In this document: piece after piece, positions 7,371 through 44,168 of the stretch
Layout: every line of letters begins with the position of its first letter
Numbering within the stretch: position 1 is the first letter of the stretch
Source: Thermoanaerobaculia bacterium
Lineage (GTDB): Bacteria; Acidobacteriota; Thermoanaerobaculia; Gp7-AA8
Direction of reading: 5' to 3'
Assembly (NCBI GenBank): GCA_017883265.1
Contig: JADGNX010000003.1
Coordinates: forward strand, 1 to 59,102
Length of the DNA: 59,102 nt
Notes under the pieces: generated by a model
Told to the model about the DNA's origin: nothing
Databases searched by the model: none
What the model saw: the letters and a program-made list of their open reading frames with translations, nothing else
Program-made: the position numbers and the translations under genes

Positions 7371-7397
7371 TGGAGCGGCGGCCGCCTCGGCCGCCGG
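7371..7397 (+). repeat. REP-like palindrome, family B
   Basis: TGGAGCGGCGGCCGCCTCGGCCGCCGG, 2 mismatches to the reverse complement of the copy at 37257-37287; related copies at 37155 and 42068. Confidence 0.7.
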
Positions 7398-32040: not shown

Positions 32041-34842
32041 TCAGCGCGCTGCGTGTCTCTTCACTTTCGGCTCTTGCGCGACGGTCGACCAGACCTCGAG
32101 AGAGCGTTCGGTGAGCAGGTAGAAATATCCCGGCCGGGAGGCGACCGACCGGATAGCGGAAGGAATCGCCGGGGTGGCGTTCGCCCGCCAGTTGACCGGA
32201 CCATCGATCGCGTAGAGCTGCGGGGCATCCGTCCGTCCTGCTATCAGGGCGCAGCTGCCATCGATCCGCACGCTTTGTCCGAACGACGACGTGGCGGCCG
32301 GGATCGCCACCTGTCGCATCGGTAAGAGCTCGGACTCGGCGAAGGCGTAGAGCTTGTCGGCCAGCAGGTACACCGTCGCCACTCCTGGCGCGTAAGCGAC
32401 CGAAGCCGGCGGCGTGGCCGAGAGTCCAGCTGTCGAGAAGCTGTTAGAGAGCGATGGATGGAATGGATCGCCGATATCGAAGATGCGAAGCTCGCCGGGC
32501 AGATCGAAGAGCGCATACGCTCGCGAGTTGCCCCCCGTGCTGCTGATGGCGACGTCGATGACGGCGCCGGTCAGGGTCATCGCGGTCGGCACCAGCGCGC
32601 TGTTCCGCGGATCGAAGATGGTCGTGACCTTCTGGCAAGGGCCCGGCACGCAGCCTTTGGATACCGAGACCCAGATCGCTCCTCCAACGTTGTAGACGGA
32701 AAGCGGGAGGGCATCCCGGGCGCTGTCGACGACCAGTTCCGAGAGAACGACGCCCGTGGCCGAGAGGAGCGAAAGCTTTCCTGATCCGCCCAGGACGACA
32801 AAGCCGCGCGGGATTGCGGCGACATCGATGATCCCCTGCACGCCTGAGAGCCCGAGGAAGTCGTAGGGAAGGCCTCCGCCCTGAAGAAACGAGTAGGAAT
32901 CGACTGATCCGCGATCGAGAAGTCCGAGCCGGTCGGCGCTCACGGTCACCTTGCTGTAGTTGGCGTTTTGCGAGGCGATTCCGGTTGACGCTGGTTGCTG
33001 GCTGGCCGTCTTCCAGTTGACCGTGGCGAAGGAGTCGCTGGTCAGCGCGGCAGCAGTCGTTCCACTCTCGTCGACCGCGATCGCCACGGGCACAGGCGGA
33101 AGGGCCAGAGTCCTTGTCAGGGCGCCGGAAGCGATGTCGAAGACCTGCACGCCGCTGTCGGTGAGGAGAAACAGCGTCGAGCCTGCCAGCGCCAGCTGGG
33201 TGCCGAAGGCCCCGACGCTGCCGGACAGGATCCTCGTCGACGGCGTGGCGCCGGTGAAATCGACCACGTTCAGGCCGCGGAAAGTCAGCGCCGCGACACG
33301 TCCCAGCGAGAGGCTGATGCCGCTCGTGGCCGCTCCTGCGAAGGTGGCGGTCTGTGGAGTCGTGGTCGGGTCGCCGGTTGCGAAGTAGCGGATCGTCGTG
33401 GTGCCGTCGTCATTGATATTGCCGAGAGCGAGAGCAATTGGTGTTCCGTTCAATGTTTCCGAACGCGCCACAAAGGAGGGAGACGACGGGGTGGGAACGC
33501 GGGTGGCGATCGATTCTGCCTGCGTCACCGGCGCTGACCAGAGAACGCGGTCGGAAGTCACGGCGTATACGTTGGTCCCGATCAGCACGGCCGAGCGGAT
33601 GCTGCTGAGCGGAACGTTCGAGACGACCGTCGGGGTCGCAGCGATCGTGGACCAGAGCGTCATGTCGCTATCGGTCGAAGTCAGCAGGAGGCCGGGCAAG
33701 GCGTCGCGCACGATCTCAGCCTTGCCGGAGGACCATTGGCGCAGTGAGGTGACGCCTGAAGTACCGATCGACAGTTCCTGGAGGGCTGTCGTTCCGGCGA
33801 CGAAGGCACTGGTGCCGACGACGCGAAGCGAGCTCAGACCGGGAAACGGAAAACTGCGGATCGGATACGGCGGCCTGAAGGCGGCGATGTCGAACGAGCG
33901 CAGGCCGGCATCGCCGGCAGCCACATAAGCCTTGTCGGCTGTTGTGACGATCCGAAAAACGCGGTTGGAGTTGCCCGCGCCGGCCGGCAGGTCGGCGGCG
34001 AAAAGGTTCACCGGCGTCGGTGTCGAGAGGTCGAGTGCGCGCAGCCGGAGATCCGCTCCCGCCGTGAGAGCAACGCCTCCGGAGATCGAGCCGAGCTCAG
34101 TTACTGCCGTCGCGAACGGTGTCCCGAGCGGTGTCCCGAGCGGTGTCATCTGAGAGCCCGAGACGCTGAAGGTCTGTGTCTGGAAGCCGTCGGAAATGAA
34201 GAGCTGTCCGTTGTGTGCGTTGACTGAGAGCGGGCGCGGAAAGGTGGAGAAGGAGCCGATGCGTATCGCCGTACCGGAGTCTATCGAGAACACTTCGACG
34301 GACGAGTCGCCATCGATCACGTAGAGAGCATTGCCGAGCGTCGCCAGCGAGACGGCGGCTCCGGTGGATGTCTGCAGAGTGGAAGGGCCCTGAACTACCG
34401 ACGGATGCTGTGGTTCGACCAGGCTCACGACGCTCAAGCCGTTCGAGGCCCCCACGAACAAATACGATCCGCTGAGTAGCATGTCGTTGATGGTGCCGCC
34501 GAGGTCGGCGATCTCGGTGGCCAGCAGACGGCTGGAGTCTTTCGTTACTCGATAAAGGACGCTCCCGCTTCCAACCAGAGCGTAGCCGCTGGTGGCTCGC
34601 ACGGAAGTAGTCCGTCCGGCGATGGCCAGCGATCTCCGGAGGACCGGCGGATCGTTCGTGGCGTCATACAGCGCCACGCCGTAGCCGGTGGCAGCCCAGA
34701 GATCGGTGCCATCGACGGCGATGTCGTAGATGGTCGAGCGGAACTGGCCGGAGGAAATGGGGACAAAAGCGCAGTCGGACCTCAGCCGGAGAGGAAGGGA
34801 TAGCAGCACACCGAAAATGAGGAGTACACGCCCGCGCATCAC
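32041..34842 (-). CDS. Large secreted beta-propeller protein (LVIVD-like repeats)
   Basis: Signal peptide; repeats such as YLFVGASNGLSVVSLVEP, AYVAAGDAGLRSFDI, LRIFDIGDPFHP; basic C-terminal tail. Confidence 0.7.
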   Translation of the reverse strand: MMRGRVLLIFGVLLSLPLRLRSDCAFVPISSGQFRSTIYDIAVDGTDLWAATGYGVALYDATNDPPVLRRSLAIAGRTTSVRATSGYALVGSGSVLYRVTKDSSRLLATEIADLGGTINDMLLSGSYLFVGASNGLSVVSLVEPQHPSVVQGPSTLQTSTGAAVSLATLGNALYVIDGDSSVEVFSIDSGTAIRIGSFSTFPRPLSVNAHNGQLFISDGFQTQTFSVSGSQMTPLGTPLGTPFATAVTELGSISGGVALTAGADLRLRALDLSTPTPVNLFAADLPAGAGNSNRVFRIVTTADKAYVAAGDAGLRSFDIAAFRPPYPIRSFPFPGLSSLRVVGTSAFVAGTTALQELSIGTSGVTSLRQWSSGKAEIVRDALPGLLLTSTDSDMTLWSTIAATPTVVSNVPLSSIRSAVLIGTNVYAVTSDRVLWSAPVTQAESIATRVPTPSSPSFVARSETLNGTPIALALGNINDDGTTTIRYFATGDPTTTPQTATFAGAATSGISLSLGRVAALTFRGLNVVDFTGATPSTRILSGSVGAFGTQLALAGSTLFLLTDSGVQVFDIASGALTRTLALPPVPVAIAVDESGTTAAALTSDSFATVNWKTASQQPASTGIASQNANYSKVTVSADRLGLLDRGSVDSYSFLQGGGLPYDFLGLSGVQGIIDVAAIPRGFVVLGGSGKLSLLSATGVVLSELVVDSARDALPLSVYNVGGAIWVSVSKGCVPGPCQKVTTIFDPRNSALVPTAMTLTGAVIDVAISSTGGNSRAYALFDLPGELRIFDIGDPFHPSLSNSFSTAGLSATPPASVAYAPGVATVYLLADKLYAFAESELLPMRQVAIPAATSSFGQSVRIDGSCALIAGRTDAPQLYAIDGPVNWRANATPAIPSAIRSVASRPGYFYLLTERSLEVWSTVAQEPKVKRHAAR

Positions 34843-34874: not shown

Positions 34875-35945
34875 TTACAGCAGGCCGGCGATATCGAGCG
34901 CCTTTCGTACGTACGAAGGGTGCGGAACCGCTGCCAGTCGCTTTGGATCGACCCAGAAGAAATCGCCGGGTCCGTCAGCGACGTTCTCCGGCTCCGAGGC
35001 CAGGACGTTGAACTGGATTCGGCGGTTCGTGATGGTGTGTCGAAATCGGCCGAGCCTCGGGCCGGGCGGAAGCGACGCTCCGGCTGACTGGAAGAGGCCG
35101 GGGGTCTGGGGCAGATGGTACATGCCGGCCATGAGTGGCCCGGTGGCCGCCTCCATCAGGACCGATCCGTCTGCCGATTGGACGACGAAGAGATCGATTT
35201 TCAGCGCCCGAGTCTCGGCCGGGGCGCGACGGACAGGCAACCGCTCCGCTTCGCCCGAAGCCCGTCCGTGACAATGGTCCTGAAGGGGACAGGAGGTGCA
35301 TCGCGGAGCGCGCGGCGTGCAGAAGAGCGCGCCGAGCTCCATGAGGCCCTGATTGAGATTCCGGGGAGATCTCGCGGCACCGACCAGCCGCGCTGCCAGG
35401 GCCCAGGTCTGTCGTGTAAAGACGGCCGAGCCGAAAGGATCTTCGATCTGCTCGAGCCGGGCGATGACGCGTGCGACGTTCCCGTCGACGATTGCCGCCC
35501 TCTCGTCGAAGGCGATCGAGGCGATCGCGCCCGCGGTGTAGCGTCCGATTCCGGGTACCGCGCGCAAAGCCTCGATGTCTCGCGGCAGACGGCCTTCGTG
35601 ATGCCGCATGAGGTGTCTGGCGCCTTCTCGCAACATGCGCGCGCGCCGGTAGTAGCCCAGTCCCGACCATGCGGCGAGAACCTCGGACTGGCTCGAGTGC
35701 GCCAGCGTGGCCACGTCCGGAAAGCGCTCGAGGAACCGGTGAAAGTGCCGATCGACGACGACCTCCATCCTGGTCTGCTGCAACATGACCTCGGAGATCC
35801 AGATCTGATAGGGATCGTAGGCCGCGCGCCATGGCAGCGCGCGCTGAGACGCCTTGAACCACTGCTCGACTCCTCGCGCCACGGCCAGGAGCCGGCGGTC
35901 TTTCGCGTTCGGCGCAGGCCGCTGGGCGTCGGAGATCGGAGGCAT
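34875..35945 (-). CDS. mutY: A/G-specific adenine glycosylase
   Basis: WISEVMLQQT, WSGLGYYRRA, PGIGRYTAGAI, VDGNV, CTPRAPRCTSCPLQDHC Fe-S motif. Confidence 0.96.
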   Translation of the reverse strand: MPPISDAQRPAPNAKDRRLLAVARGVEQWFKASQRALPWRAAYDPYQIWISEVMLQQTRMEVVVDRHFHRFLERFPDVATLAHSSQSEVLAAWSGLGYYRRARMLREGARHLMRHHEGRLPRDIEALRAVPGIGRYTAGAIASIAFDERAAIVDGNVARVIARLEQIEDPFGSAVFTRQTWALAARLVGAARSPRNLNQGLMELGALFCTPRAPRCTSCPLQDHCHGRASGEAERLPVRRAPAETRALKIDLFVVQSADGSVLMEAATGPLMAGMYHLPQTPGLFQSAGASLPPGPRLGRFRHTITNRRIQFNVLASEPENVADGPGDFFWVDPKRLAAVPHPSYVRKALDIAGLL

Positions 35946-35953
35946 ACCGCTTG

Positions 35954-35960
35954 TATTATA
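35954..35960. promoter_or_regulatory. Overlapping divergent -10 elements between mutY and gvpF
   Basis: TATTATA reads TATTAT on + and TATAAT on -; only 44 bp separate the two start codons. Confidence 0.5.
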
Positions 35961-35989
35961 GTTTCCGTCAACTTCCCTGGAGGTCAGCG

Positions 35990-36784
35990 ATGGATGAGGC
36001 AGCGCAACCAGTGCAGCCTGACGGCGAGCAGGGAAAGTATGTCTACTGCATCATCAGGAGCGAGTCTCCCCACAGCTTTGGCGCAGTCGGCATCGGCCGC
36101 CGCAACGATCAGGTTTACACCGTCCATTACAAGGAGTTTGCGGCGGTCGTCTCCAACTGCCCCCTGATCGTCTTCGATCCCACGCGCGAGAATGCTCTTG
36201 CTCACGAGCACGTGAACGAGTTGGTCATGAAGGACTTCACAGTGCTGCCGATGAGCTTCGGAACGGTCTTTCGCACCGAGAACGACATTCGCGAGTTCCT
36301 CAAGGGTACCTACGAAGCGCTCAGCGATGTGCTCGGGAAGATGGAAGGGAAAATCGAGTTCGGCCTCAAGGTGAACTGGGACAAGGATGCCGTAATCCGG
36401 GAACTGGAGCATGATGATGAGGAGATCCGCCGTCTGAAGGAAGAGATCTTCTCGAGCACGAGCAGCTCGAGCTACTTTTCGCGCATGCAGCTCGGGCGGG
36501 TGGTGGAGTCGGCGCTTCAGGCGCGTGCCGACTCGTACGTCAGCGAGATCTACGAGAGCCTGCGCGACGCGGCGATCGCGTCGCGCTCCAACAAGCCGAT
36601 CGGCGACAAGATGATCCTGAACGCCGCATTTCTAGTGGCACGTGAGAAGACGCGCGCCTTCGACGAGCAGATCTCCGACATCGCCAGAAAATACGAGAAT
36701 AAGCTGTCATTTCTCTATACCGGTCCCTGGCCCCCGTACAACTTCGTAAACATCCGTTTGAAACTGGAGCGCGCGGAGAGATGA
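35990..36784 (+). CDS. gvpF: Gas vesicle protein GvpF/GvpL family
   Basis: GKYVYCII, AHEHVNE, VLPMSFGTV, C-terminal GPWPPYNFV; RBS GGAGG. Confidence 0.92.
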   Translation: MDEAAQPVQPDGEQGKYVYCIIRSESPHSFGAVGIGRRNDQVYTVHYKEFAAVVSNCPLIVFDPTRENALAHEHVNELVMKDFTVLPMSFGTVFRTENDIREFLKGTYEALSDVLGKMEGKIEFGLKVNWDKDAVIRELEHDDEEIRRLKEEIFSSTSSSSYFSRMQLGRVVESALQARADSYVSEIYESLRDAAIASRSNKPIGDKMILNAAFLVAREKTRAFDEQISDIARKYENKLSFLYTGPWPPYNFVNIRLKLERAER

Positions 36785-36805
36785 CTCGAAGCGGCGACCA
36801 ACAGC

Positions 36806-37129
36806 ATGTTCCTTATCGATGACATTCTGATGCTTCCGTTCAAGCTGCCCGTGGCCGGCTTCAACTGGGTCATGAGACAAATCCAGACGATGGCCGATGA
36901 AGAGCTTCTGAACGATCAGGCCTGGAAGGAGAGGCTCATCGAGTTGCAGATGATGCTGGAGGTGGGCGACATCTCCGAGGAGCAGTTCGCGGCGGAAGAG
37001 GCGATCGTCTTCCTGCAACTTCGCGAGATCCGCGCGCGCCGCGAGGAGATAGCCCGTCATGCTGCCGCCTCTCGCGGTGAAGAGGAGCCTGAGAGCGCGA
37101 TCGGCATCTACACCGGTTACGGCAAGTAG
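36806..37129 (+). CDS. gvpG: Gas vesicle protein GvpG
   Basis: MFLIDDILMLP..GFNWV..ADEEL..LIELQ..GDISEEQF..EE signature. Confidence 0.88.
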   Translation: MFLIDDILMLPFKLPVAGFNWVMRQIQTMADEELLNDQAWKERLIELQMMLEVGDISEEQFAAEEAIVFLQLREIRARREEIARHAAASRGEEEPESAIGIYTGYGK

Positions 37130-37154
37130 GCCGGGATAACGCGCTCCCGCCCGC

Positions 37155-37287
37155 CCCGGCGGCCGAAAGCGACCGCCGCTCCACTGGGCGCCGGTTCAGT
37201 GGAGGGGCGCCCGCTCACGGGCGCCCGCGCGCGAACCGGGGCTGCTTCCAACCCGTCCCGGCGGCCGAAGCGACCGCCGCTCCACTG
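37155..37287. repeat. REP-like family B cluster (single copy plus ~91-bp doublet element)
   Basis: GGCGGCCGAA(A)GCGACCGCCGCTCCACT twice; element 37197-37287 bounded by CAGTGGAG/CTCCACTG inverted ends. Confidence 0.8.
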
Positions 37288-37313
37288 TCGGTTGTAAGCT
37301 TCGATATCCATCC

Positions 37314-39188
37314 GTGAGCCTGCCTCGAGACAGAACCGCCGAGCTGCGCCGGGCGATCGACGAGATCGCCGGCCGGCGCATCATTCTGGTCGGAGGAAAA
37401 GGGGGAGTCGGCAAAACGACGATCGCTTCTCTCGCCGCTCTCCATCTGGCCCTCAGCCGCAGAGTCGTACTCTTTACGACCGATCCTGCATCGAACCTCG
37501 ACGACCTGTTCGCGTCAGCCACCGTGGACAACCTGACGATCGAGAAGGTCGATGCGGATCGGCTTTATCGACGATTCCTGGAGCGGAACCTGTCGTCGTT
37601 TCTCGAGCTCGGCGACCGCGGAACGTACCTGGAAAAGGAGGAGCTGCAACGTTTCTTCGAACTGGCTCTCCCCGGCATCGATGAGTTGATGTCGTGGATG
37701 AGAATCGGAGAACTGGCCGAAGAGGATCCCGGCCGCCTCGTCATGGTCGATACCGCACCCACCGGGCATACGCTCCGGATGCTGGGCTCCGGAGCGCACT
37801 TCCTGCAACTGGCCTCGGCACTCGATGCCATGCAGGCCAAGCACCGGAACATGGTCCGCCAGTTCACGCGGCGCAATAGCCGTGACGCCATGGACTCGTT
37901 CATAGACGCCTTTCGCCTGGAGGGAGAGAAGAGGCTGGCGTTGCTTCGCGACGCCGCCAGCACCGCGTTCATTCCCGTCCTGCTCTCGGAGCCGTGGGTG
38001 GTGGAGCAGTCGCTGAGGTTGATCGCGGAGCTTCAATCCGAGGGAATCGCCATTCCGTTCGCCATCCTGAATCGCAGTGCGGATGACGAGGGGTGCCAGA
38101 AATGCAGCGCGCGCCAGGAACGCGATCGGGCAGCGCACGCGTCGTTAGGGTCGCTCCTGGTCACCGACGCACCAAGGTCGTGTGTGCCGCTGGATACGAT
38201 CGCCAGACTCACCGCGTTTCTCCGTGGCGACCTCCCGGAGAACGGGAACGTCGTCGATGTAACCCCGGGAGGTGGCGTAACTGCCGAAAAGCGATTGATC
38301 CTTCCTCCCCGGGCCAGACTCCTTTTCGTGGCCGGGAAAGGAGGAGTAGGGAAGACGACCGCAGCGGCGGCGATCGCCAGCCAGCTCGCCCGCGAGAATC
38401 CAGACCGGCGGTACACGGCGATCTCAGTTGATCCGGCGCACACCCTTCCGTCCGTGTTCGCGGATCAACCTCCGCCGGAGAACCTGACGATCGAAGCGAT
38501 CGACACACGTGCGCGTTGGCGGAGCTTCCGCGAGTCTCTGGGAGAAGAGATCGAGCGAGCCGTCGATGCGCTGACTCCGGGGAACATCTCGCTGGCCTAT
38601 GACGCTGATGCGATGCGGAAGCTGCTGGAGATCGCCCCGCCGGGGGCAGACGAGCTCTTCGCCATCAGCAGGATGGCCGATCTTCTGGCCGACGAGTCGC
38701 AGGCCATGATTGTCGTCGACACGGCCCCGACCGGCCACTTCCTCCGCCTTCTCGACCTCCCGCAGAGCGCAGGCGACTGGGTACGCGAGCTGATGCGGAT
38801 CCTTCTCCGCTATCGGCAGATCGTTCCCGCCGGGTCTCTGGGAGAGGACCTCGTCGCAGCATCGCGCTCGCTGCACGCGCTCGAGGCTGCGCTTCACTCG
38901 GAGCGCTCGGCGGTTGTGGTGGTCTGCCGTCCGGAGAGGATCGTAGTCGCCGAGACCGAGCGGCTGATCGCGGAGATCGCCCGTCGCGGCATGACCCTCG
39001 GCGGCGTGATTGCGAACTACGTCACCCCCCTCATCGATTGCCGCTGCGACCGCATCTCCAGAACCTATGAGCTCGAGGTGCTGGCGACAATCGACCAGGC
39101 GCATCTCATCCTGATAGGACGCCGCGATGCACCGATCGAGGAGCCCGGCGATCTTCCGGAGTTGCTCGAGACCGACAACCCCGCTTGA
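37314..39188 (+). CDS. Tandem-domain ArsA/Get3(TRC40) family ATPase within the gas vesicle locus
   Basis: Two GKGGVGKTT P-loops, two DPA switch-I motifs, two DTAPTGH motifs, PGIDE/PGADE, CQKC and CRC. Confidence 0.92.
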   Translation: MSLPRDRTAELRRAIDEIAGRRIILVGGKGGVGKTTIASLAALHLALSRRVVLFTTDPASNLDDLFASATVDNLTIEKVDADRLYRRFLERNLSSFLELGDRGTYLEKEELQRFFELALPGIDELMSWMRIGELAEEDPGRLVMVDTAPTGHTLRMLGSGAHFLQLASALDAMQAKHRNMVRQFTRRNSRDAMDSFIDAFRLEGEKRLALLRDAASTAFIPVLLSEPWVVEQSLRLIAELQSEGIAIPFAILNRSADDEGCQKCSARQERDRAAHASLGSLLVTDAPRSCVPLDTIARLTAFLRGDLPENGNVVDVTPGGGVTAEKRLILPPRARLLFVAGKGGVGKTTAAAAIASQLARENPDRRYTAISVDPAHTLPSVFADQPPPENLTIEAIDTRARWRSFRESLGEEIERAVDALTPGNISLAYDADAMRKLLEIAPPGADELFAISRMADLLADESQAMIVVDTAPTGHFLRLLDLPQSAGDWVRELMRILLRYRQIVPAGSLGEDLVAASRSLHALEAALHSERSAVVVVCRPERIVVAETERLIAEIARRGMTLGGVIANYVTPLIDCRCDRISRTYELEVLATIDQAHLILIGRRDAPIEEPGDLPELLETDNPA

Positions 39189-39271
39189 GCAACTGAGGCG
39201 CCGAATCAGTTTCTGCCTTCTGCGATTACCTGCCGGTTGCCTCCTTCGTTTCGATACGGCACACTGAATCG

Positions 39272-40069
39272 GTGAGCGGGACCGTACTCTACGTTTATGC
39301 GATCCGCGCGGAGGGTCCGTCAAGCGGTCGGGCCGCCGCCATTTCGCTGGCGACGGACGCGGTCGACCGCTCCCGTAATTTCAGATCGGTGACCGCGGCC
39401 GGACTGGCGGCCATCGTCACCCCGGTTCCGCTCGGCGAGTTCTCTCAGGAGGCGGTCGACCGCCGCGCAGGCGATCTCGAATGGCTCGGAGCGATTGGCT
39501 ATCGACATCAGGGGGTCATCATCGAGTTGATGAAGGAAGGGGATGTCCTCCCTCTCCGGGCATTCTCGCTTTTCAGCTCCGACACCATGCTCGGGCGCTA
39601 CCTGGAAGAGAACGCCGGGCGTCTCGGGAATGTGCTGCAGCGATTGGCCGGAAAGCGAGAGTGGACTCTGCGTGTCGAGTTCGATCCCGAGCCGTGGAAC
39701 GTTGCTCTGGGGCGACGGGTCTCTTCCCTCGCGGAGCTGACGAGGGAGATCGAGATCGCCGGCGCGGGGAAGAGCTTTCTCCTGCGAAAGAAGCTCGACG
39801 AAGAGAAGAAGCGGGTCTCGAGGCAGGCCGAGGAGCAGGTCGTATCGGAGATCGAGAGCTCGATTGTCGAGAAGCTGGCATGCCAGACCGTGGCGGAATC
39901 GCGCCAGCAGCGGGGCGGGGCATTCCCTCAGCTCAACGTTCTCATCAACCGGGACGAGGAATCTCTGCTGCAGGATCTGCAACTCGAGCTCACAGGCAGG
40001 TACCAGGGCGACGGAGTCTCCATCGCTCTGAGCGGACCGTGGCCGCCGTACACCTTCGCCCATGTCTGA
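39272..40069 (+). CDS. gvpL: Gas vesicle protein GvpL/GvpF family
   Basis: LYVYAI, DLEWL...HQGVI, VLPLR, GKSFL, SGPWPPYTF. Confidence 0.88.
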   Translation: MSGTVLYVYAIRAEGPSSGRAAAISLATDAVDRSRNFRSVTAAGLAAIVTPVPLGEFSQEAVDRRAGDLEWLGAIGYRHQGVIIELMKEGDVLPLRAFSLFSSDTMLGRYLEENAGRLGNVLQRLAGKREWTLRVEFDPEPWNVALGRRVSSLAELTREIEIAGAGKSFLLRKKLDEEKKRVSRQAEEQVVSEIESSIVEKLACQTVAESRQQRGGAFPQLNVLINRDEESLLQDLQLELTGRYQGDGVSIALSGPWPPYTFAHV

Positions 40070-40268
40070 CCGCAGCGAAGAATTGTCGCTTCTCGAAACC
40101 CTCGATCACCTTCTCGATCGCGGAGTGGTCATCGCCGGCGAGGCTACCATCTCCATCGGCGGAGTCGATCTCCTCTACCTCGGACTCAATGTCGTTCTGG
40201 CAAACATCGACACGCTGATGCGAGGCCGCGACATGAGGCTGGGCGTCGGGACGAAGAAGGTGGAGTGA
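40062..40268 (+). CDS. Gas vesicle protein of GvpA/J/M/S family (GvpS/GvpM-like)
   Basis: SLLETLDHLLDRGVVIAGEATISIGGVDLLYLGL. Confidence 0.85.
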   Translation: MSDRSEELSLLETLDHLLDRGVVIAGEATISIGGVDLLYLGLNVVLANIDTLMRGRDMRLGVGTKKVE

Positions 40269-40930
40269 GCATGGATGACGCCAGCCAGGCGGCGAAGCTG
40301 ATCGCCATCGGAATCCACGGCCAGCTCTCTGACATTCCGGATGGGGGAGAGGCTACGGCCGTCGGCGTCGGGAACGTTTTCGTCAGCGTTCTCGGAGTTC
40401 CGCATGAACAGCCGCTTGCCGATCGGGAGCTGCTGTTGCGCGTGGCCGGGATTCGCCGCCAGTTGCTGGAGTCGGCAACATTCATCGGCATCCGGTATGG
40501 CGCCGCCTTCTCCAGCGTTGAAGAGCTGAAGAGCCGGTTCATCGGACGCGTTGCGAACGCGGCGGAGATTCTCCGAATGCGTCGCGGTTGCGTGGAGATG
40601 ACCATGAAGTTCCCGGTGGGGGGGGCTGCTGCGCCACCCGATCGACACGATTTCTCGAGCGGAGGCGATTACCTGCGCGCTCTCCAGTTCCATCGCAAGG
40701 CGGCGAAGCTGGATCCGGAGTTCAGCACGCTCGTTGAGCAGCGCCTGGCCCCTCTGGCGGTGGAATTTCGCTGGCGTCCGCGCGACGCGTCGTCGGTCGA
40801 GCTCGTGGCGCTCATTCTGCGGGGAGAGACCGATCGATTTCGAGCTGCGGCGGAAACGTTGCGAGACAGCCGGCAGGCGTTTCTTCTTTCGGGTCCATGG
40901 CCGCTGGAGGTGTTCGGTGAAGCCGTCTGA
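40265..40930 (+). CDS. Divergent GvpL/GvpF family protein
   Basis: FIGIRYG, SGGDYLR, C-terminal LSGPWPLEVF; GTGA overlap with the preceding gvp gene. Confidence 0.75.
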   Translation: MSMDDASQAAKLIAIGIHGQLSDIPDGGEATAVGVGNVFVSVLGVPHEQPLADRELLLRVAGIRRQLLESATFIGIRYGAAFSSVEELKSRFIGRVANAAEILRMRRGCVEMTMKFPVGGAAAPPDRHDFSSGGDYLRALQFHRKAAKLDPEFSTLVEQRLAPLAVEFRWRPRDASSVELVALILRGETDRFRAAAETLRDSRQAFLLSGPWPLEVFGEAV

Positions 40931-41261
40931 GGCAGTGATCGTGAGCAACGATGAAGAGGCGCTGCTGCGGGAGCTGTCTTTCACAGATTCGGCGATTCCC
41001 GATCGTATCTCAGCGGATTCCGACTCGGTGGAAAATGGACTGGCTAAGCTGGTGCTATCGATCATCGAGCTGGTCCGTCGCCTTCTGGAAAAGCAGGCCC
41101 TCCGGCGCATGGACGCCGGCAACCTGAGCGAAGAAGAGATCGAGCAGCTCGGCTCCTCTCTGATGAAGCTCGAAGAGAAGATGCTGGAGATGAAGAAGGT
41201 TTTCGGGCTGGAGGGCGACGATCTGAACCTCTCGCTGGGCCCCATCCGGACTCTCGAGTAG
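40917..41261 (+). CDS. gvpK: Gas vesicle protein GvpK
   Basis: GLAKLVLSIIELVRRLLEKQALRRM..LSEEEIEQLG..L..DLNLSLGP; GTG start after GGAGG (40941 is an alternative). Confidence 0.93.
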   Translation: MKPSEAVIVSNDEEALLRELSFTDSAIPDRISADSDSVENGLAKLVLSIIELVRRLLEKQALRRMDAGNLSEEEIEQLGSSLMKLEEKMLEMKKVFGLEGDDLNLSLGPIRTLE

Positions 41262-41289
41262 AAGCTGAGGGCGCCTCGCATTCACCTCA

Positions 41290-41298
41290 TGCTATCGT
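41290..41298 (+). promoter_or_regulatory. Possible extended -10 internal promoter for gvpJ-gvpA
   Basis: TGCTATCGT in the 75-bp gap before gvpJ, followed by a strong RBS GAGGAGG. Confidence 0.35.
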
Positions 41299-41336
41299 TA
41301 CGCTCCGCGTACGCGAATTGATTGAGGAGGTCGGCC

Positions 41337-41693
41337 TTGGCTATCGAAGATCGAGGGCTTCAGCGGCAGCCGCAAGGGCTCGTCGACATCCTCGACAAGA
41401 TTCTCGATAAGGGACTGGTCGTCGCTGGTGACATCAAGGTTTCCCTGGCCAACGTCGAACTACTGACGATCCAGCTTCGACTGGTGATCTGTTCCATCGA
41501 CAAGGCTGAGGCTATCGGCATCAACTGGTGGCGAGCGGACAGGTTCTATTCGAGTGATGCAAGGGCTGAGCTGGCCTCGGGTCAGGATGTAAAGGCCCTC
41601 GAGCAGCGTATCAAGGAACTCGAGCAGCGCCTCGGAGCGAACGAGACTCCATCCGCATCGATTGAAACGAAAGAGAACACGAAAGGCAGGTAA
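41337..41693 (+). CDS. gvpJ: Gas vesicle protein GvpJ
   Basis: LVDILDKILDKGLVVAGDI..VELLTIQLRL..SIDKA..GINWW, then a coiled coil; TTG start. Confidence 0.9.
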   Translation: MAIEDRGLQRQPQGLVDILDKILDKGLVVAGDIKVSLANVELLTIQLRLVICSIDKAEAIGINWWRADRFYSSDARAELASGQDVKALEQRIKELEQRLGANETPSASIETKENTKGR

Positions 41694-41696
41694 ATC

Positions 41697-41981
41697 ATGG
41701 CCGTGGAACGGGCGCCAGGCGGCACCAGTCTCATCGACGTACTCGATCGCATCCTCGACAAAGGCATCGTCATCGACGCCTGGGTCCGCATCTCATTGGT
41801 GGGCATCGATCTGATCACTGTCGAGGCACGCATCGTCATCGCCTCGATCGATACCTACCTGAAGTACGCCGAAGCAGTCGGCATCACGGGAACGATCTCC
41901 CGCCCTGCCGTGTCGAGCGGCGAGGGTTCTGGAAGCATGGGCAGCTCGACGCCTGTGGCCAGCCGCGGAACCGTACCGTAG
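41697..41981 (+). CDS. gvpA: Major gas vesicle shell protein GvpA
   Basis: [57 protein letters not shown]. Confidence 0.96.
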
Positions 41982-42008
41982 CGCAAAGATTGCGCGCGGT
42001 GCGGCTTT

Positions 42009-42095
42009 AGTGGCGGGGCACCCGCTCTCGGATCCGCGCGTTGAACCACCGCTCGCCGCCCTCCCCTCGGCGGCCGAAGCGACCGCCGCTCCACT
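42009..42095. repeat. REP-like family B doublet element (~87 bp), homolog of 37197-37287
   Basis: AGTGGCGGGGCACCCGCTC...GAACC...GGCGGCCGAAGCGACCGCCGCTCCACT. Confidence 0.8.
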
Positions 42096-42137
42096 CGTTG
42101 CGGGGCCGCACTATGGCACCGCCCCGCAGGCATCGCG

Positions 42138-44168
42138 TCATTTCTTCAGGAAGCCATCGAGCCAGCCGGTGACCGTCTGGTACCAGAGCCGCGAGTTCTG
42201 CGGCTTGAGCACCCAGTGACCTTCGTCGGGGAAATAGAGAAAGCGCGACGTGACTCCGCGGCGCTGCAGCGCCGTGAAGAGCTCCATACCCTGGCTGACC
42301 GGAACGCGGTAATCGAGCTCTCCGTGGACCACCAGTGTCGGTGTCTTGAAGTTCTTCGCGAAGCGATTGGGCGACCACTTCTGATAGAGCTCCGGGTTGT
42401 CCCACGGGTTGCCGCGGAACTCCCACTCCGGGAACCAGAGCTCCTCGGTCGACCCATACATCGCTTCGAGGTTGTAGACGCCGTCGTGCGTGACCAGAGC
42501 CTTGAAGCGGTCGGTGTGCCCGAGAATCCAGTCGATCATGTAGCCGCCGTAGGATGCTCCCGCGGCGCCGATCCGGTCCGGATAGACGTACGGCATCGCA
42601 GCCAGCTTATCGACGCCGTTCATGATGTCGGTGTAGGCCTTGCCACCCCAGTCGCCGGAGATTTCCTCGACGAACTTCTGGCCATAGCCAGTCGAGCCGC
42701 GTTGGTTCGGCATCAGAACGACGTAGCCCGCCGCCGCGAACATCTGCGGATTCCAGCGGTAGCCCCATGCGTCGTTCCATGCTCCCTGCGGGCCGCCGTG
42801 GATCAGTACGAGCCCCGGGTATTTCGTGTGGGCGTCGAAGTTTGGCGGCTTGATTATCAGCGCTTGAACATTGGCGCTTTCCGCCCCCGTGTACCAGATA
42901 TCCGAGGTCTCTCCCATCTGGATAGCGGAGAGGAGCCCGTCGTTGTCATGCGTCAATTGTGTAGCGGAACCGCCGCTCCGCGCGACGGAGAAGAGATCGG
43001 CAGGACGAGTCAACGACGAACGTGCGAAGAAAAGCGTACGACCATCCGGGCTGACCAAAACAGAGTCCGACGATCCTTCACCGTAGATGCGTCGGAGCGC
43101 ACCGCCTGGCAGTGAGACCTCGAAGATCGGCTGCTTCGACTTCTCCTCGGCAGTGATGAAGATCGACTTGCTGTCGGGGGCCCAGGTAATGGAAGAGACG
43201 CCGTTCTCCAGCGTCTTCGCCGTGCGGGTGATCGCGCCTGTCGATCGGTTGTAGAGCGTCAGCTCCCACAGATCGGATTCATATCCCGCCCGGGCCTGGG
43301 AGATGTAGGCGATCCACTTGCCGTCCGGCGAGTAATGCGGCGAGGTATCGCCGCCCTTTCGCGTGGTGATGCGCCGGCTCAGGCCTCCTGCGGTCGGAAC
43401 CAGGAAGAGATCGCTGTTGGTCGAGACTTCCTGATGGTCCTCGACGTTGCGCGTGTAGACGACCTCTTTTCCGTCCGGTGAAATGTCGAATTCGTCGCCG
43501 CCACCCAGCGAGAAGAAGGGAGCGTCAAACCTGCCCTGAGTCAGATCGACCGGATTGCCACGGAGCGGCACGTAAAGGATGTGGCTTCTCGTCGGCCCCT
43601 GCCAGCTCTTCCAGTGCCGGTAGAGAAGCGAGTCGATGACGCGCGCCTTGACCGGGTTGGCGTCGGCCAGGTCCATGCGGCTCTTCGCGCATTGCGGGTC
43701 TACACCGCAATCAGGATAGATGTCGGACGTGGCCAGCAGGGCCGAGCCGTCCGGTACCCAGCGAATGGCGGATGCCCCACCAGGAAGGGTCGAGACTTTG
43801 GTCAGTGATCCGCTGGCGACGTCGGCCAGATAGATCTGAGTCGTGTCGCCGTCCCGATCGGATACAAAGGCGATGAACTTGCCGTCCGGCGACCACATCG
43901 GACTCTGATCCAGATGCCCCTCGTCAGTCAGCCGTCTGGAAGCCCCGCCAGCTGCAGGGATCAGAAAAAGCGAACTTCTATTCTTGTTAGCCGCAAGGTC
44001 AGGAGTGGTGCCGACGTAGGCCAGCCACTGACCGTCGGGCGAAAGTTGAGGTGAGCCGATGCGCCGGATGCTCGCCATGTCGTTGAATGTCATCGGGTGC
44101 GTTGTCGTCTGTGCCGGTAGCGTGGCGGCGAGGGTCATCATCGACGCAGCTACGATCAGTCTCTTCAT
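42138..44168 (-). CDS. Secreted S9 family peptidase with TolB/PD40 propeller
   Basis: Signal peptide, SPDG repeats, IHGGP, GASYGG, HGELDYRV, FPDEGH. Confidence 0.95.
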   Translation of the reverse strand: MKRLIVAASMMTLAATLPAQTTTHPMTFNDMASIRRIGSPQLSPDGQWLAYVGTTPDLAANKNRSSLFLIPAAGGASRRLTDEGHLDQSPMWSPDGKFIAFVSDRDGDTTQIYLADVASGSLTKVSTLPGGASAIRWVPDGSALLATSDIYPDCGVDPQCAKSRMDLADANPVKARVIDSLLYRHWKSWQGPTRSHILYVPLRGNPVDLTQGRFDAPFFSLGGGDEFDISPDGKEVVYTRNVEDHQEVSTNSDLFLVPTAGGLSRRITTRKGGDTSPHYSPDGKWIAYISQARAGYESDLWELTLYNRSTGAITRTAKTLENGVSSITWAPDSKSIFITAEEKSKQPIFEVSLPGGALRRIYGEGSSDSVLVSPDGRTLFFARSSLTRPADLFSVARSGGSATQLTHDNDGLLSAIQMGETSDIWYTGAESANVQALIIKPPNFDAHTKYPGLVLIHGGPQGAWNDAWGYRWNPQMFAAAGYVVLMPNQRGSTGYGQKFVEEISGDWGGKAYTDIMNGVDKLAAMPYVYPDRIGAAGASYGGYMIDWILGHTDRFKALVTHDGVYNLEAMYGSTEELWFPEWEFRGNPWDNPELYQKWSPNRFAKNFKTPTLVVHGELDYRVPVSQGMELFTALQRRGVTSRFLYFPDEGHWVLKPQNSRLWYQTVTGWLDGFLKK

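Follow-up and report, generated by a model that had tools for sequence, protein, structure and literature searches.

Clusters of gas-vesicle (gvp) genes that include a two-domain homologue of the ATPase ArsA were reported in four phyla by Castillo and Saier in 2010 (PMC2963123), and a cluster of this general kind occupies nt 35,990–41,981 of the DNA analysed here, a stretch of 59,102 nt from an acidobacterium that is referred to below as the window. The clusters named in the relevant part of that paper are those of Acidobacteria bacterium Ellin345, Anabaena/Nostoc, Polaribacter, Pelodictyon and Geobacter uraniireducens. For Ellin345, its listing gives an ArsA homologue of 634 aa, two L/F genes and the genes J, K and M, and no N. 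The proposal was that the homologue 'energizes a biogenic step' other than the one served by GvpN, the two having 'distinct but related functions', and homologues falling outside the ArsA cluster were described as being without the metalloid cysteines. The link between ArsA and gvp genes, with an acidobacterial example, has been known since then, and the kind is uncharacterised: the account given there includes neither an experiment nor an analysis of selection, synteny or phyletic distribution, and the window cluster is likened to that of Ellin345 by description only.

Better studied systems depend on GvpN. Of the genes in the B. megaterium cluster GvpBRNFGLSKJTU, only R, T and U can be dispensed with (PMC11223475). 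In the passages of a 2022 review that treat these proteins, gvpA, gvpC and gvpFGKLN are stated to be conserved in all clusters, GvpN is said to enlarge the bicones, GvpL is a platform that binds other Gvps including GvpN, and haloarchaeal mutants lacking GvpN form tiny vesicles (PMC9501494). Serratia gvpN mutants are described as making small bicones and failing to float (PMC4982088), and loss of GvpN is reported more generally to leave bicones that fail to elongate (PMC4982088, PMC11445434). The set described for producing Anabaena flos-aquae vesicles in mammalian cells is gvpA plus gvpNJKFGWV, with no ArsA homologue (PMC10344784). The term ArsA does not occur in the full text of PMC11445434 or PMC10344784, and PMC9501494 was not among the matches listed for literature containing both 'gas vesicle' and 'ArsA'. 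Searches joining 'gas vesicle' with Koribacter or with Get3 found nothing, those joining it with Acidobacteriota/Acidobacteria and gvpA found nothing relevant (the gvp passages of two of the matches concern Firmicutes), and 'gas vesicle' did not appear among the matches listed for the class names. The view that this is a lineage not known for gas vesicles, put forward in an initial annotation of the window, is accurate for observed vesicles only.

The window cluster consists of eight intact gvp genes and a gene for a 624-residue ATPase, all on the forward strand, in the order F-G-[ATPase]-L-S-F-K-J-A (Table 1). On balance we read it as a functional, vertically inherited 'ArsA type' gas-vesicle operon in which the ATPase would carry out an ATP-dependent step of assembly. 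All nine genes called by the initial annotation were confirmed by Pfam at their coordinates, and the accessory set of gvpF/L, gvpG, gvpK and the GvpA-like gvpJ and gvpS/M scores above the Pfam cut-offs throughout. Its description of the genes as translationally coupled, flanked by mutY and an S9 peptidase, and native in composition also agrees with what is found: L and S overlap by 8 nt, S and the third F/L gene (F3) by 4 nt, F3 and K overlap or abut, and a gap of 3 nt lies between J and A; the flanking genes carry the expected Pfam domains; and the G+C content of the cluster (0.576–0.655) is no outlier within that of the whole window (0.557–0.682).

Seven of the products appear to match the parts needed in B. 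megaterium (GvpA, GvpJ, GvpS, GvpF, GvpL, GvpG and GvpK). GvpA would form the shell, GvpJ and GvpS would be minor GvpA-like proteins, and GvpF and GvpL would serve as scaffolds, the third GvpF/L protein being an extra. The shell protein passes NCBIfam model NF006874 (116.1 bits, cut-off 100), aligns over residues 1–71 with the solved A. flos-aquae GvpA (8gbs, E 7.3e-27) and matches the B. megaterium shell protein (7r1c, 2.8e-22). It has a canonical 71-residue core followed by a 23-residue Gly/Ser/Thr/Pro tail that differs among relatives; the 88-residue chain of 7r1c likewise extends past such a core. The two systems share the same core parts and the order F-G-L-S-K-J; B. megaterium has no GvpC, and none of the cyanobacterial type is found here. 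They differ in that B. megaterium needs GvpN, while the window has an ArsA/Get3-fold ATPase between G and L; in addition, the window gvpA is last instead of first, a third GvpF/L gene lies between S and K, and there is no R, T or U. Actinomycete clusters of the Streptomyces coelicolor type are also from soil bacteria and are described as gvp clusters without gvpN, but with a GvpA differing markedly from those of vesicle producers (PMC4982088). The window GvpA, in contrast, is canonical. To our knowledge, actinomycete gvp clusters contain gvpO and have no ArsA homologue.

The initial annotation had noted that the cluster is without gvpN, gvpO and gvpC; GvpN, GvpO and the cyanobacterial type of GvpC were not found in the whole genome either. 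The assembly totals 3.93 Mb in 454 contigs, with a completeness of 95.6% and a contamination of 3.5%, and the window lies on its contig C74. The top match to the GvpN model (TIGR02640) has 22 bits against a cut-off of 266.8, and there are no matches to GvpO (PF05800). GvpC (PF01304) likewise gave no match in the genome, and neither did tblastn with Nostoc GvpC, but only the cyanobacterial type is excluded, because PF01304 misses the haloarchaeal GvpC of pNRC200. The genome was also searched by tblastn with the Nostoc and Halobacterium GvpN, GvpO, GvpC, GvpH and GvpI proteins, which returned generic AAA similarity only. The Gas_vesicle and GvpL_GvpF models have three matches each in the genome, all inside the cluster, and no second locus that could supply gvpN, gvpO or gvpC was found. 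In control sequences the GvpN model reached 408–440 bits (Nostoc sphaeroides p4 and Halobacterium pNRC200), GvpO 109–121 bits (pNRC200), and four GvpC repeats were detected in Nostoc p4. A panel of 41 genomes, that of the window plus 40 relatives, likewise gave no GvpN above the cut-off (top 34.1 bits) and no GvpO. In this the lineage departs from the clusters of Castillo and Saier, most of which have gvpN, while sharing with them an ATPase of two ArsA domains and about 600–650 aa, placed inside the gvp cluster with no arsR.

Gas_vesicle genes are present in 21 of the 41 genomes, including 18 of the 24 further members of the window's family, all of different genera, and two of three from the same taxonomic order; there are none in the 13 genomes from other families of the class. 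The ATPase (E ≤ 1e-30) is found in 22 of the 41, namely all 21 gvp-positive genomes and G018, a 78%-complete genome with an ATPase fragment, and, like the gvp genes, it does not occur in the 13 genomes of the other families. These tallies include an unpublished genome, G022, no sequence of which was used; without it the counts are 20/40 for gvp genes and 21/40 for the ATPase. Eighteen related loci were compared by tblastn, and 12 of them carry the full colinear F-G-ATPase-L-S-F-K-J-A set on a single contig with the same flanking genes. The set is split over two places in G026 and G009, and one further locus stops at a contig edge. The mutY gene adjoins gvpF1 in all 16 gvpF1-containing loci, a pair of which gave identical rows, and the S9 peptidase adjoins gvpA in seven of the 14 that hold gvpA, so that the operon site between these two genes is seen to be kept across genera of this family, whose members are labelled Thermoanaerobaculia. 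Protein identities to the window range from 32–59% for GvpL2 to 76–93% for GvpA (Table 1); GvpA and GvpF1 (68–86%) are better conserved than the adjacent MutY, which reaches only 47–56%.

Several relatives carry additional genes within the cluster. A 742-residue PMT_2-like membrane protein is inserted between the ATPase and gvpL2 in G002 (L033:4683–6911), G015 has at this same place, but on the opposite strand, a gene for a secreted protein of 689 residues that matches no Pfam family, and in G006 gvpJ and gvpK are separated by a metallophosphoesterase gene read from the opposite strand (L034:3176–3712). These inserts are mutually unrelated and are not gvp genes. The ATPase of G015 (L042:4817–6555) appears as two overlapping single-domain open reading frames (ORFs), which may be a real split or a frameshift.

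The gvp genes and the ATPase gene are under purifying selection. Codon models (GY+F3X4, fixed trees, 13–15 sequences per gene, five for the S9 peptidase) gave omega (dN/dS) values of 0.016–0.136 for the cluster, against 0.096 and 0.087 for the flanking genes mutY and S9 peptidase, and the relaxed selection raised as a possibility by the initial annotation is not seen. These models exclude the ATPase of G015 (L042), which is split, and the peptidases of L041 and L042, which are truncated. Pairwise NG86 dN/dS for the lowest-dS pairs ranged from 0.06 to 0.67; the codon-model values are preferred because the NG86 pairs are biased by the choice of low dS and by codon bias in third-position G+C (GC3).

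The cluster ATPase is a tandem two-domain protein of the ArsA/Get3 fold and the only NTPase of the operon. The initial annotation had rightly listed an ATPase, leaving it unnamed; since it belongs to the ArsA/Get3 family, the system cannot be regarded as one without an ATPase. Against TIGR00345, which models the TRC40/GET3/ArsA subfamily of transport-energizing ATPases, the protein scores 241.4 bits and so passes the cut-off of 135, but it falls well below the ArsA equivalogs TIGR04291 (164.5 bits, cut-off 650) and NF041417 (138.7 bits, cut-off 800). Its closest solved relatives by sequence are Chlamydomonas reinhardtii ArsA1 (5zme), Escherichia coli ArsA (1f48) and Leptospirillum ferriphilum ArsA, followed by Get3. 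An AlphaFold2 model built from an alignment of 82 rows has a mean predicted local distance difference test score (pLDDT) of 92.4 and a predicted template modelling score (pTM) of 0.93. Foldseek ranked closed ArsA (9nbo) first (E 4.5e-27; template modelling (TM) scores of 0.69 and 0.75), with E. coli ArsA and ArsA1 next, and either half taken singly also matches Get3 chains; target-normalised TM-scores are 0.53–0.77 for whole tandem chains and 0.60–0.76 for Get3 on one half. The deviant-Walker-A fold and the dimeric or pseudo-dimeric form are common to all of these proteins. The window ATPase differs from them in its low identity (about 20–27%) and in having Gvp proteins as genomic partners, not Get1/2/4/5 or ArsB/ArsD.

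In both halves the P-loop, the switch-I Asp-Pro and the switch-II DTAPTGH are invariant or nearly so among 82 sequences, and the enzyme looks catalytically competent. Its cysteines occur only at 261, 264, 290, 538, 576 and 578, with none in residues 60–250 or 380–530, the helical subdomains. In E. coli ArsA the metalloid-binding cysteines lie in the helical subdomains. The equivalog scores, the cysteine-free helical subdomains and the gvp neighbours make it very unlikely that the protein is an arsenite pump. Two cysteine pairs, CQKC (261–264) and CRC (576–578), begin equivalent helices, one per half, and the paired motif is present in 50/82 sequences in the N half and 57/82 in the C half. Methionine makes up 3.8% of the helical subdomains and 1.0% of the rest. 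Get3 binds hydrophobic segments of its clients in a methionine-rich groove and has, at the (pseudo)dimer interface, a CxxC pair linked by zinc.

Its place in the operon, its co-occurrence with the gvp genes and a single fusion tie the ATPase to them, and it belongs to the gvp system. The genome has no other ArsA-family locus (tblastn), and the neighbours of the ATPase gene on both sides are gvp genes, with no ars genes among them. In G006 (L034:4985–7633) the ATPase and GvpL2 form a single 882-residue frame with ArsA_ATPase and GvpL_GvpF domains. A word-based search of proteins of 485–1544 aa for other such fusions gave P0013 only; this has the same architecture and is 100% identical to residues 294–882 of the G006 protein (P0001), so the two represent one lineage. 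The fusion is a single-lineage hint that the ATPase may work beside GvpL, and it would fit the role of GvpL as a platform for other Gvps, GvpN included, described in part of the 2022 review (PMC9501494). A predicted complex of the ATPase with GvpL2 (score 0.00, mark 0.32) was counted neither way. More widely, 4175 library representatives match the ATPase at E ≤ 1e-3, a number that drops to 497 at E ≤ 1e-30; the top ones are mostly tandem proteins of 600–700 residues that are 30–40% identical to it. A protein atlas returned generic ArsA-family clusters only, from Myxococcota, Cyanobacteriota, Acidobacteriota and Gemmatimonadota. The gvp cluster of Nostoc p4 encodes an 'ArsA family ATPase' that is 28% identical over the full length, and tblastn of the window ATPase against plasmids gave no match at E ≤ 1e-30, a cut-off too strict for that protein.

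Across the phylum, sampled evenly with 301 genomes, Gas_vesicle genes score above the cut-off in 15, seven of them from the taxonomic order of the window. The ArsA type is the sole ATPase in ten, these being the seven of the window's order together with G210, G318 and G253. Both ATPases occur in the cluster in two (G172, G254), GvpN alone, accompanied by GvpO, in two (G243, G270), and one (G189) has neither in its cluster. The identical nine-gene order is found in G318, from another family, and the same genes, rearranged, in G210. The G189 cluster (L052, C51:19000–35000; genome about 100% complete) has F-G-L-S-F, K and J-A without a cluster ATPase, and a single-domain ArsA-family gene is found elsewhere in that genome.

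Further features of these clusters were noted. The gvp genes of G189 are interleaved with others that encode an HD-GYP-type protein, a PAS histidine kinase and a response regulator, and the vesicle genes of that acidobacterium may accordingly be under two-component or c-di-GMP control. Clusters of the GvpN type (L051 of G172, L055 of G243, L056 of G270) encode an ATPase with two AAA domains and about 600 (613) residues. It is also present in Nostoc p4 (L047:11743–13584), beside the ArsA homologue, with 47–54% identity between the Nostoc and Acidobacteriota proteins, and is absent from ArsA-only clusters.

The steps of assembly in which the ATPase might take part can be sketched. GvpN, the AAA+ protein that in other systems drives bicones to grow into cylinders, appears to be missing from the whole lineage, and the ArsA/Get3-fold ATPase is seen between gvpG and gvpL instead. 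It would act at the GvpF/L scaffold, where an ATP-driven cycle of open and closed forms could hold or pass on the very hydrophobic GvpA-family subunits, much as Get3 handles tail-anchor helices, and it would thereby supply the energy-dependent step that is provided by GvpN in other systems. A fuller version of this idea, in which the ATPase is a GvpN-independent engine, a Get3-like chaperone docked on GvpL that feeds GvpA-family subunits and allows full buoyant vesicles to form without an AAA+ protein, is possible but doubtful.

Several points weigh against the reading of the cluster as an operon in which the ATPase drives assembly. Vesicles have not been observed in any organism of the lineage, and no RNA data were found. 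The ATPase may not be indispensable, because the G189 cluster has none, and the A. flos-aquae set used in mammalian cells, as described in PMC10344784, implies that the ArsA homologue can be dispensed with where GvpN is present. The two clusters with both ATPases fit distinct roles as well as they fit substitution. The ATPase–GvpL fusion is known from one lineage only, and in the window genome a repetitive extragenic palindrome-like (REP-like) insert parts gvpFG from the rest of the operon. Synonymous sites are saturated (tree lengths of 12–72 substitutions per codon), and the omega values therefore stand for strong constraint and not for exact ratios.

Among other explanations, the one given most weight is that the ATPase and GvpN do separate jobs and could not stand in for each other. 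The ATPase would be a holdase, or a factor that targets GvpA, GvpJ, GvpS or GvpG, the last of these considered for its predicted membrane-like helix. Lineages without GvpN would then skip the energy input for elongation or draw on a housekeeping AAA+ protein. This, too, is a tentative proposal that we hold with some doubt. The clusters that contain both ATPases (G172, G254 and Nostoc p4) speak in its favour, as do the 'distinct but related functions' proposed in the passages of Castillo and Saier (PMC2963123), the position of C. reinhardtii ArsA1 as best solved sequence match, the Get3 matches to each half, the paired cysteines at equivalent places and the methionine content of the helical subdomains. 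However, one or both ATPases are present in 14 of the 15 gvp-positive genomes of the phylum panel, and the ArsA type alone in ten, which fits at least partial functional overlap.

Another explanation is that the operon, being without GvpN, makes small bicones only, or a structure with a role other than buoyancy, such as stress tolerance or the control of cell volume in soil, and that the ATPase provides no compensation. The small, non-floating bicones described for Serratia gvpN mutants (PMC4982088) and the tiny vesicles described for haloarchaeal ones (PMC9501494) are in line with it; the DNA is present in soil and permafrost metagenomes, from habitats where flotation in open water is not the obvious need; and G189 has the same gvp set without a cluster ATPase. 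We consider it unlikely, as the strict co-occurrence of ATPase and gvp genes (22/41), an omega of 0.094 and the retained catalytic motifs all count against an ATPase that does nothing for the structure. Co-occurrence, selection and motifs together argue that the ATPase contributes to assembly, and whether a vesicle, a bicone or a non-buoyant structure results is a question that sequence alone would hardly decide. That the ATPase is an ordinary arsenite-efflux ArsA present in the operon by chance, or the operon a decaying relic, is very improbable: Pfam and public names do say ArsA or anion-transporting ATPase, and the top fold matches are arsenite-pump structures, but the protein scores far below the equivalog cut-off, lacks helical-subdomain cysteines, has no ars genes beside it and is confined to gvp-positive relatives, and the nine genes, none of them broken, show purifying selection across genera.

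The features of the cluster and its surroundings are given in Table 1. The mutY gene is divergent from gvpF1, with 44 bp between the start codons, and is adjoined by a gene for a 933-residue secreted protein (nt 32,041–34,842, reverse strand) that has no Pfam match and is syntenic in relatives (32–38% identical). The start of gvpK is likely to be a GTG at 40,917, 40,935 or 40,941, at or just past the end of gvpF3; GvpK starts with ATG and has 107–108 aa in four relatives. The NCBIfam GvpJ-like model gives 45.6 bits for gvpJ, below its cut-off. A scan of nt 35,700–42,300 found no promoter-like sites, and two terminator-like sites, fewer than in shuffled sequence.

Table 1. Features of the gas-vesicle gene cluster and flanking genes; identities to the window proteins are best-segment tblastn values among related loci, and omega values are from codon models.
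Feature	Position (nt)	Strand	Evidence	Identity (%)	Omega
mutY-type adenine glycosylase (flank)	34875..35945	-	Pfam HhH-GPD, HHH, NUDIX_4	47-56	0.096
gvpF1 (GvpF/L family), the operon's most conserved gene	35990..36784	+	Pfam GvpL_GvpF 3.7e-76	68-86	0.027
gvpG	36806..37129	+	Pfam GvpG 3e-16		0.051
REP-like repeat spacer	37130..37313	.	blastn-short, repeat unit copies		
Tandem ArsA/Get3-fold ATPase, 624 aa	37314..39188	+	Pfam ArsA_ATPase 1.5e-75, two stretches	42-64	0.094
gvpL2 (GvpF/L family)	39272..40069	+	Pfam GvpL_GvpF 1.8e-40	32-59	0.104
gvpS/M-like small GvpA-family protein, 68 aa	40062..40268	+	Pfam Gas_vesicle 8.6e-14		0.016
gvpF3, divergent third GvpF/L paralogue	40265..40930	+	Pfam GvpL_GvpF 9.9e-8, 32.7 bits (cut-off 23.6)	33-47	0.136
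gvpK	40917..41261 (ORF open from 40734)	+	Pfam GvpK 2.4e-32, residues 91-174 of long ORF		0.105
gvpJ (GvpA family, long C-terminal extension)	41322..41693	+	Pfam Gas_vesicle 1.7e-16	64-78	0.068
gvpA, shell protein, 94 aa	41697..41981	+	Pfam Gas_vesicle 4.5e-17	76-93	0.071
S9 prolyl-oligopeptidase-family peptidase (flank)	42138..44168	-	Pfam Peptidase_S9 2.3e-67	62-68	0.087

The spacer between gvpG and the ATPase gene contains direct and inverted repeats, with two copies of the REP-like repeat and an inverted partner. Its sequence gives 221 blastn-short matches across the genome, the 36-nt unit alone having 166 matches on 122 contigs, and its RNA is predicted to fold with -100.3 kcal/mol (z -3.04). 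Copies of the repeat are also found at nt 42,068–42,095 and 7,371–7,397 of the window. The repeat is not at the spacer position in relatives or in a close soil strain, represented by a 5.9-kb soil contig that has 182 other letters there. It caused a spike of depth in metagenome contigs.

The host is an acidobacterium of soil and permafrost, as the initial annotation had supposed it probably was. Three loci in named genomes carry the ATPase (59–60% identical), all from metagenome-assembled genomes titled Thermoanaerobaculia bacterium, and P0013 bears the same label, that of a class within the Acidobacteriota. The stretch is present as DNA in permafrost and soil metagenomes. The four best matches are from one sample, which may be the source of the window; four further runs, from four studies, have contigs that are 90–99% alike over most of the cluster, and the 5.9-kb soil contig is colinear with nt 36,232–41,981 except for the gvpG–ATPase spacer. 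No RNA datasets are among the 20 runs listed with the stretch, which was not used as evidence either way.

A family-level lineage of the Acidobacteriota retains a selected gvp operon with an ArsA/Get3-type ATPase and without GvpN, contrary to the 'all clusters' of the passage cited from the 2022 review (PMC9501494). If the ATPase does the job of GvpN, it would represent a second route to vesicle assembly and a new mechanistic class. The cluster, with nine genes in 6 kb, is directly testable in E. coli and, if the proposal is true, would offer a compact chassis for acoustic reporter genes. It would also suggest that gas vesicles are a trait of abundant soil and permafrost Acidobacteriota.

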